Positions 7,738 through 8,718 of a DNA stretch of 16,133 nucleotides are shown here, piece by piece. The stretch comes from a virus. Taxonomy: Duplodnaviria; Heunggongvirae; Uroviricota; Caudoviricetes. Where the stretch lies: IMG/VR virus record IMGVR_UViG_2526164667_000023; one strand, given 5' to 3'. Position numbers and translations under genes: made by a program. Positions within the stretch are counted from its first letter, which is position 1; the number at the start of each line of letters is the position of its first letter. The notes under the pieces were generated by a model that saw nothing but the letters and a program-made list of their open reading frames with translations, made no database searches and was not told the DNA's origin.

Positions 7738-8598
7738 TTAGTAGGTTATTTTTGTTGCGAATAATTCGCCTTTTACGATGGCTGTTATGATATTTTTAGC
7801 AACATCTTCTGATGCGCCAACCTTGATAAGGTCAGCAAGTATTTTGTTATTTACTTCTTTCCGGTGAGCTTTATCCTTTGCTCTACGCTCTTCTTCGTCC
7901 TTGATTCTTTTTTCTTCTGCTATTCTGGCTTGCTCTTTTGCTTCAGCCTCGCGCAGGATTCGTTCTGCCTCCTCCTGTGCTTTACGGCGTTCTGCTTCAA
8001 TTGCCGCATGCTTTTCTCTTTCAGCTCGTTCTGCTGCCTCTTTTGCTTCGCGCTGTGCTCGTTGCTCGGCTTCAATGCGTTCACGCTCTGCACGTTCCTC
8101 TGCGGCCTTAGCTTCTGCTTCTCGCCTTGCTGCTGCTTCAATTTCGGCTTTTGCCTTTGCTTCGGCTTCAGCTCTGGCTTTCTCTTCAGCTTCTCTTTTT
8201 AAGCGTTCTTCATGCTCTCGCTTTTCCTGCTCCGCTTTGAGTCTTGCCTCTTCTCTTTGGCGGTCAAATTCGCGATCCATCAAAATCGCTATTTCATGGT
8301 CAGACTCAATTTGCTTTGCGAGAGCTTCAGCTGCTGCCTTAGCTTCTTCTTCGGCTTTAATCCGCGCCTGTTCTTCCTCATAATCAGTAAGAGGCTGGCG
8401 CGCCTTGGCTTTCAGTTCATCAAGGCGATCGCGCACTGTCTTGCGGTTAGCATCAATTAGCTTTGGAATTTCCTTCAGTTCAGCAACAAGGTCTTTGCCA
8501 AGACCATCGAGATATGTTTTCGTCTGCGCAACTTTATACGCCAGATAAGCGATCTCCTTTCTGCCCTTTGCCGTTGTGATATCAGGCACAAAGGACAT
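7738..8598 (-). CDS. E/A/K/R-rich coiled-coil protein (286 aa from ATG 8598); in-frame continuation of an ORF starting at 8706 interrupted by TAG at 8647-8649
   Basis: Track ORF; central 150 aa almost entirely E, A, K, R (charged single-helix/coiled-coil type). Upstream in-frame ATG at 8706 has a strong GGAGG site. Confidence 0.7.
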   Translation of the reverse strand: MSFVPDITTAKGRKEIAYLAYKVAQTKTYLDGLGKDLVAELKEIPKLIDANRKTVRDRLDELKAKARQPLTDYEEEQARIKAEEEAKAAAEALAKQIESDHEIAILMDREFDRQREEARLKAEQEKREHEERLKREAEEKARAEAEAKAKAEIEAAARREAEAKAAEERAERERIEAEQRAQREAKEAAERAEREKHAAIEAERRKAQEEAERILREAEAKEQARIAEEKRIKDEEERRAKDKAHRKEVNNKILADLIKVGASEDVAKNIITAIVKGELFATKITY

Positions 8599-8718
8599 AA
8601 CTTCACGTTCAACCTTTTGAAGAATTTCTTCAATCTGGTCGGCAGACTAAATTACAGTCATTGCATTTGCTTTTTCAATAACAACTAAATCTGTTACTTC
8701 ACTCATATATCCTCCGTC

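Follow-up and report, generated by a model that had tools for sequence, protein, structure and literature searches.

The 16,133-nt stretch of prophage DNA analysed here (the window) carries on its minus strand an accessory early gene of a lambdoid prophage that has very probably lost its function through a genuine nonsense mutation. This gene is a member of the Sf6 gene 33 family, and a real in-frame TAG (amber) stands at codon 20, where the relatives have a sense codon. As a nonsense pseudogene, this locus is already known, since public annotation flags the identical sequence: RefSeq (PGAP) marks it as ‘pseudo, internal stop’ in both O26:H11 11368 (ECO26_RS04435) and DEC9B (KIM47_RS08470). 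The coordinates of the gene and its surroundings are given in Table 1.

Table 1. The disrupted gene and its surroundings in the window, ordered approximately along the leftward direction of transcription
Feature	Position	Strand	Basis or remark
cro, cII		Opposite to disrupted gene	
cI	15034-14330	-	
N antiterminator gene	12820..13164	-	Pfam N_peptide, E 5.6e-32
IS21-family element (IstA/IstB), 1954 bp, within sieB	10335..12288	-	Pfam IstB_IS21 (E 1e-111) and rve; duplication GGAAG
sieB, interrupted	ATG at 10298	+	
IS3-family element, 1331 bp	8958..10288	-	Pfam rve, HTH_21 and HTH_Tnp_1 on ORFs 8969-9874 and 9832-10242; 5-bp duplication GAATC
Intrinsic terminator, hairpin TTGCCCTC-cagtgt-GAGGGCAA and T run	8719..8747	-	Terminator scan; upstream of disrupted gene
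Ancestral Shine-Dalgarno GGAGG	8711..8715	-	Sequence; anti-SD duplex -9.5 kcal/mol
Whole disrupted gene, Sf6 gene 33 / PHROG 1376 family, early-left	7738..8706	-	322 codons and stop, with in-frame amber at codon 20
19-codon N-terminal remnant, MSEVTDLVVIEKANAMTVI	8650..8706	-	Sequence and Sf6 comparison
Codon 19, ATT (F19I; TTT in relatives)	8652-8650	-	Alignment
Amber TAG, codon 20 (ancestral CAG, Gln)	8647..8649	-	Sequence of relatives
16 in-frame sense codons from stop to Met37 (48 nt), SADQIEEILQKVEREV	8599..8646	-	Sequence
286-codon ORF from Met37, stop at 7740-7738	7738..8598	-	Open frame; N-terminally truncated fragment if translated
cIII, next gene downstream in the leftward early operon	7582..7713	-	PGAP annotation of identical DNA
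kil, erf, anti-RecBCD gene, truncated ea22-like and Lar-like genes, xis, int, ybhC	After cIII		

The disrupted gene and its intact relatives

The initial annotation had described a minus-strand frame that opens at a well-equipped ATG, runs into a TAG and continues in the same frame into the start of a 286-codon ORF; every one of its coordinates was exact. The minus strand reads GGAGG (8715-8711), ATAT, and then the ATG at 8706-8704. The anti-Shine-Dalgarno duplex at this start (-9.5 kcal/mol) ranked among the strongest 1.2% for the 346 ATGs on the minus strand of the window, as compared with an unremarkable -3.6 kcal/mol (29th percentile) at the ATG at 8598, which bears out the difference between a strong and a weak ribosome site noted at the outset. 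The only in-frame start-like codons in the 48-nt gap between the stop and the ATG at 8598 were two ATT codons, neither with a Shine-Dalgarno sequence.

Sf6 gene 33 (AAQ12223.1, 322 aa) was colinear with the window gene without gaps at 98% DNA identity (19 differences over 969 nt), and the two share their start codon and ribosome site. Codons 19 and 20 read TTT CAG in both Sf6 and CUS-3 and ATT TAG in the window, and the window translation differed from Sf6 gp33 at 7 of the 322 positions, one of which is the stop. With the Gln restored, residues 1-322 matched phrog_1376 (E 4e-107), which is annotated as a PHROGs family of unknown function. Relatives with a length of 322 aa were found in Escherichia, Enterobacter, Citrobacter, Cronobacter, and Salmonella at 75–98% identity, and those from the latter four genera showed 75–77% identity in the protein search. 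The alignment of homologues thus shows CAG elsewhere and supports the proposed ancestral 322-aa gene with a CAG-to-TAG nonsense mutation. The idea of a single change needs refining, because F19I (TTT to ATT) is also present and two bases therefore differ from the intact allele.

The first 36 residues, which precede Met37, are strongly conserved and rank with the best-conserved residues of the family. Among close relatives, the alignment showed M1, S2, E3, T5-E11, N14, A15, and V18 to be invariant and F19 and M37 to be nearly invariant, and L7 and F19 were still invariant in relatives at 39–58% identity. Position 20 is Q, K, or T, with Lys or Thr in the more distant relatives. The 19 residues before the stop and the 16 residues after it match this conserved N-terminus residue for residue. 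A search with residues 37-121 retrieved 4,364 clusters at 50% identity (E <= 1e-3), and the match began 30–105 residues into the protein in 148 of the best 150 of them, which means that nearly all relatives have an N-terminal extension. The situation named in advance as contradicting the ancestral gene, namely that homologues all start at the equivalent of 8598, was accordingly not what we found. Similarity to the family is full-length and colinear, including the N-terminal 36 residues, while the frame of approximately 322 codons is interrupted in the window by the TAG at codon 20; this copy is a pseudogene of a family member and not a functional member.

Proteins of the family are approximately 300–390 aa long. 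A conserved N-terminal domain is followed by a long coiled coil, which differs in length between members, and by a small C-terminal domain, likewise conserved, with a motif of approximately 45 aa. The length of the coiled-coil part (7900-8350 in the window) varies through in-frame deletions even among near-identical E. coli copies, which measure 245, 275, 290, 300, 306, or 322 aa. The same segment is also a site of frameshifts, with an additional T at codon 112 in CUS-3 and a 14-bp deletion at codon 157 in a lineage from extraintestinal pathogenic E. coli (ExPEC).

Searches of Pfam, NCBIfam, and PADLOC with the reconstructed protein, its N- and C-terminal parts, and ten diverse relatives gave nothing meaningful, and the ten relatives were without a Pfam family. 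A profile search of PDB sequences returned coiled-coil noise only. In the AlphaFold2 model (pTM 0.27), residues 46-295 formed a single long helix and the N-terminus was poorly predicted, and a Foldseek search of this model against the PDB gave no match at E <= 0.001. A DUF1351-like architecture was considered, but no Pfam match bore it out. Annotation pipelines name such proteins ‘cell envelope biogenesis protein TolA’, but no TolA model in Pfam or NCBIfam matched the reconstructed protein, its parts, or the ten relatives. The likeness to TolA is one of composition only (an extended helical region with abundant Ala, Glu, and Lys), whereas the window gene is a phage early-operon gene without a TolA domain match, and the name seems to be an artefact of low complexity. 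Literature searches on the gene or on the amber allele found nothing.

Prophage context and spread of the amber allele

The window represents a lambdoid prophage adjoining ybhC in O26-type E. coli. Its best matches were DEC9B, F2_407_2_2, and 7_33_46A, each with 100% identity over 88% of the window. The disrupted gene is part of the leftward (pL) operon, where a tL2A-type terminator precedes it and cIII follows, an order shared with Sf6, CUS-3, SCU-123, and the Stx1a phage; the Sf6 annotation has a terminator at the equivalent place (‘tL2A’), described as homologous to lambda tL2A. N would be needed for read-through of the terminator into the disrupted gene. No Rfam families were found in the window.

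Two IS elements in tandem place 3.3 kb of foreign DNA between N and the disrupted gene, in the path of the pL transcript. The IS3-family element, which we take to be IS2-like by its size and ends, sits between sieB on one side and the terminator and disrupted gene on the other, and it ends 10 nt before the sieB start codon. It is absent at the same site in O26:H11 11368, and the IS21-family element is absent from the otherwise identical DNA of DEC9B. The two genes flagged in RefSeq are identical to that of the window, including the amber codon, and lie in the same ybhC-integrated prophage; the window prophage differs from that of DEC9B by having one more IS element (the IS21-family element), and from that of O26:H11 11368 by lacking the deletions and the IS600 insertion of the latter. 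Sf6 gene 33 has the equivalent position, with the tL2A-type terminator before it and cIII after it, but it is an intact ORF with TTT CAG, whereas the window copy has ATT TAG and five further amino-acid changes, some of them at conserved positions.

Position 7717 of the window, 4 nt upstream of the cIII start in the ribosome-site spacer, is C on the minus strand and A in both O26:H11 11368 and LC744181. It is the sole mismatch of O26:H11 11368 over 7700-8900, and the other genomes listed scored the same (99.9%).

The spread of the allele was followed with a 35-mer centred on codon 20, searched for in 5,426 complete E. coli genomes. The window allele, ATT TAG, was present in 111 genomes (120 places), with O26:H11, O111:H11, and O103-type strains among others, and the intact allele, TTT CAG, in 327 genomes. 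TTT TAG was present in 16 genomes, which were all of the one-mismatch genomes and whose recorded hosts were human, and the intermediate ATT CAG was found in none of the 5,426. In the phage collection, the window allele occurred only in four records of Stx1a-converting phages (LC744181-4); the other 31 matching phage records were at least 2 bases away from it, and the two that were read (Sf6 and CUS-3) had TTT CAG. Among the 120 IMG/VR matches listed, 110 had TTT CAG, 6 ATT TAG, 3 TTT TAG, and 1 TTT AAG. An intact 322-aa ORF was retained by 88 of the 110 listed TTT CAG matches, and 5 ended early, at codons 116–138. The 286-codon ORF downstream remained open throughout its length in the window and in five of the six ATT TAG copies listed. 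The exact 286-aa translation was absent from the protein collection searched.

Between position 8840 and approximately 2446, the window and the Stx1a-converting prophage LC744181 differed at 3 positions, followed by sharp divergence within int, and the disrupted gene itself showed no mismatch over its 969 nt. The amber allele therefore belongs to an early-left module of approximately 6.4 kb that is common to the ybhC prophage and the Stx1a-converting prophages. In the Stx1a prophage, the gene comes after N and a 156-aa ORF, without IS elements; this uninterrupted arrangement indicates that the stop cannot be put down simply to the decay of a prophage that is already dead. Evidently, the gene is not required.

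The module (2446-8840, from the amber gene to xis), as it occurs in LC744181-4, looks like the outcome of an integrase swap between the ybhC prophage and Stx1a phages. Other decayed genes lie at 3835-5157 of the window (ea22-like, Lar-like, and one hypothetical gene), which PGAP labels ‘incomplete’ in the identical DNA of DEC9B and O26 11368; this DNA is also present in the Stx1a prophage module.

The second amber lineage, the TTT TAG of the 16 human-associated E. coli genomes (an ExPEC prophage), lies on a CUS-3-like haplotype (e.g., NZ_CP051711.1, 1243263-1244217). It has none of the other derived changes of the window lineage, including those only 3 nt and 29 nt away, and it carries its own 14-bp frameshifting deletion, with the same structure in the four copies inspected. 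The two TAG haplotypes reflect either a C-to-T change that occurred twice at one site or a very short recombination patch.

Substitution pattern and possible ways past the stop

When the differences were polarised with Sf6 and CUS-3, 12 derived changes fell on the window lineage, 7 non-synonymous (F19I, Q20stop, S54Y, A203E, Q233H, R251L, and V315L) and 5 synonymous, as compared with 0 and 7, respectively, on the Sf6 lineage (Fisher p = 0.017, with small counts). Downstream of Met37, the corresponding numbers were 5 versus 4 in the window against 0 versus 7 in Sf6 (p = 0.034, again with small counts), the non-synonymous changes within 7738..8598 being S54Y, A203E, Q233H, R251L, and V315L. In the alignment of intact family members, F19 and S54 are invariant and R251 is nearly invariant. 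The dN/dS of the window lineage was approximately 0.4, based on small numbers. This pattern may point to relaxed constraint on both sides of the stop, which would speak against selection for a full-length product as well as for a restart product. The surroundings of the gene are decaying too, with the two IS elements on its N side, a broken sieB, and truncated ea22-like and Lar-like genes, and in strain UTAK-23 an IS600 has additionally cut the amber copy.

It is exceedingly improbable that the TAG results from an error in sequencing or assembly, or that the gene starts at 8598 below a coincidental upstream frame. We found no point in support of either; the same allele recurs in 111 complete genomes assembled independently of one another, in 4 phage records, and in 6 IMG/VR contigs, and the residue-for-residue match to the family N-terminus contradicts a coincidental frame. 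Its presence in the 111 genomes and the four phage records means that the stop is heritable and not an error. A real stop could still be decoded as an amino acid, by suppression or readthrough, so that the full-length protein would still be made. Low-level natural UAG readthrough does occur in E. coli, and classical lambdoid amber mutations, such as lambda Sam7 and Pam80, are single-base changes to TAG that are rescued in a supE or supF host. The window resembles these in having a TAG in a lambdoid phage gene, but its amber codon is natural and lies in a non-essential accessory gene, and the carrier that was checked is without supE: in O26:H11 11368, taken as a representative carrier and examined for supE, both glnV and glnX are wild type, with CTG anticodons. 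The supE allele of glnV was found in 156 genomes, and the 60 of these matches that were listed were all K-12 laboratory strains. The window itself contains no tRNA genes. Programmed stop-codon recoding was considered and rejected, since the TAG is confined to two narrow lineages and the relatives have Gln, Lys, or Thr, so that the stop lacks the conservation expected of a programmed recoding site. The base after the TAG is T, a context expected to favour efficient termination, and the F19I change beside the stop speaks against selection on the full-length protein. Overall, decoding of the amber codon is very unlikely to sustain the gene.

A restart at the ATG at 8598, by reinitiation or independent initiation, would yield a 286-aa truncated protein with its function kept or changed. 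Met37 is in frame and nearly invariant, the ORF downstream of it is intact, and codon 20 is also amber in the second lineage; because the 286-codon ORF is still open, the amber mutation may be recent or the truncated product may matter. A predicted RNA fold of 8560-8725 (minus strand) pairs GACGGAGGAUAUA at 8706 with UAUGUCCUUUGU around the AUG at 8598, joining the ribosome-site region of the first start to the second, and translation of the mini-ORF could thereby unmask 8598, although the support for this fold is weak (z = -1.94; 9 of 200 shuffles were as good). In lacI, early amber mutations are known to be followed by restarts, and the window shares with these cases, and with termination-reinitiation coupling, an early stop followed by an in-frame AUG as a possible restart site. 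In native E. coli gene pairs, however, a gap of 38 nt cuts termination-reinitiation by 80–100% (PMC10666635), and the 48-nt gap and weak Shine-Dalgarno sequence of the window (29th percentile) lie outside the range measured to work. The locus was likewise rejected as a coupled ORF pair, for which stop and restart need to overlap or lie approximately 10–20 nt apart. The 36 residues that a restart product would lack belong to the best-conserved part of the family, and S54Y and R251L are derived changes at invariant or nearly invariant residues downstream of the restart. In the second amber lineage, the 14-bp frameshifting deletion means that no restart product has been kept. A restart product with a function is thus unlikely, and the initial suggestion that the product depends on reinitiation or on an amber-suppressor host found no support, given the 48-nt gap and the wild-type Gln tRNAs of the carrier.

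The two amber lineages also raise the possibility that the stop arose twice, in Shiga toxin-producing E. coli (STEC) and in ExPEC, either through a C-to-T hotspot or because an early stop was selected at codon 20. One change makes a stop at 20 sites of the gene by transition and at 123 by transversion, and the post-hoc chance of a repeat hit at codon 20 is roughly 1 in 20 to 1 in 140. The ExPEC copy is frameshifted, which speaks against selection for a particular truncated product. We consider a double origin of this kind quite unlikely and regard the repeated amber at codon 20 as a curiosity.

The reading we prefer is a nonsense mutation that abolished the function of the gene. In the window lineage, CAG became TAG at codon 20, and TTT became ATT at codon 19. 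Ribosomes loading at the strong GGAGG would make a 19-residue peptide and then terminate, and the remainder of the gene would be translated poorly or not at all, with Met37 lying 48 nt further on behind a weak ribosome site. Any product starting at Met37 would be without the conserved N-terminal segment. From these sequence features, we infer that no functional protein is made from the amber gene. The allele is inherited within the early-left module, which is nearly identical between the ybhC-integrated prophage and the Stx1a-converting prophages of O26, O111, and O103-type E. coli.

Significance of the amber allele

This is ordinary gene decay, a nonsense pseudogene of an uncharacterised accessory phage gene, and in itself the finding matters little, as it confirms the automatic ‘pseudo, internal stop’ annotation of a decayed accessory gene. 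If an early stop were in fact selected, the full-length protein might be costly to lysogens, or the Met37 restart fragment or the 19-residue peptide might be useful. A by-product of modest value concerns the family, which is very large (thousands of 50%-identity clusters), is without a Pfam model, and is misnamed ‘TolA’; another is the amber at the same codon in the ExPEC prophage lineage. The amber allele also marks the module of approximately 6.4 kb in which it lies, and may help to trace recombination among STEC prophages.
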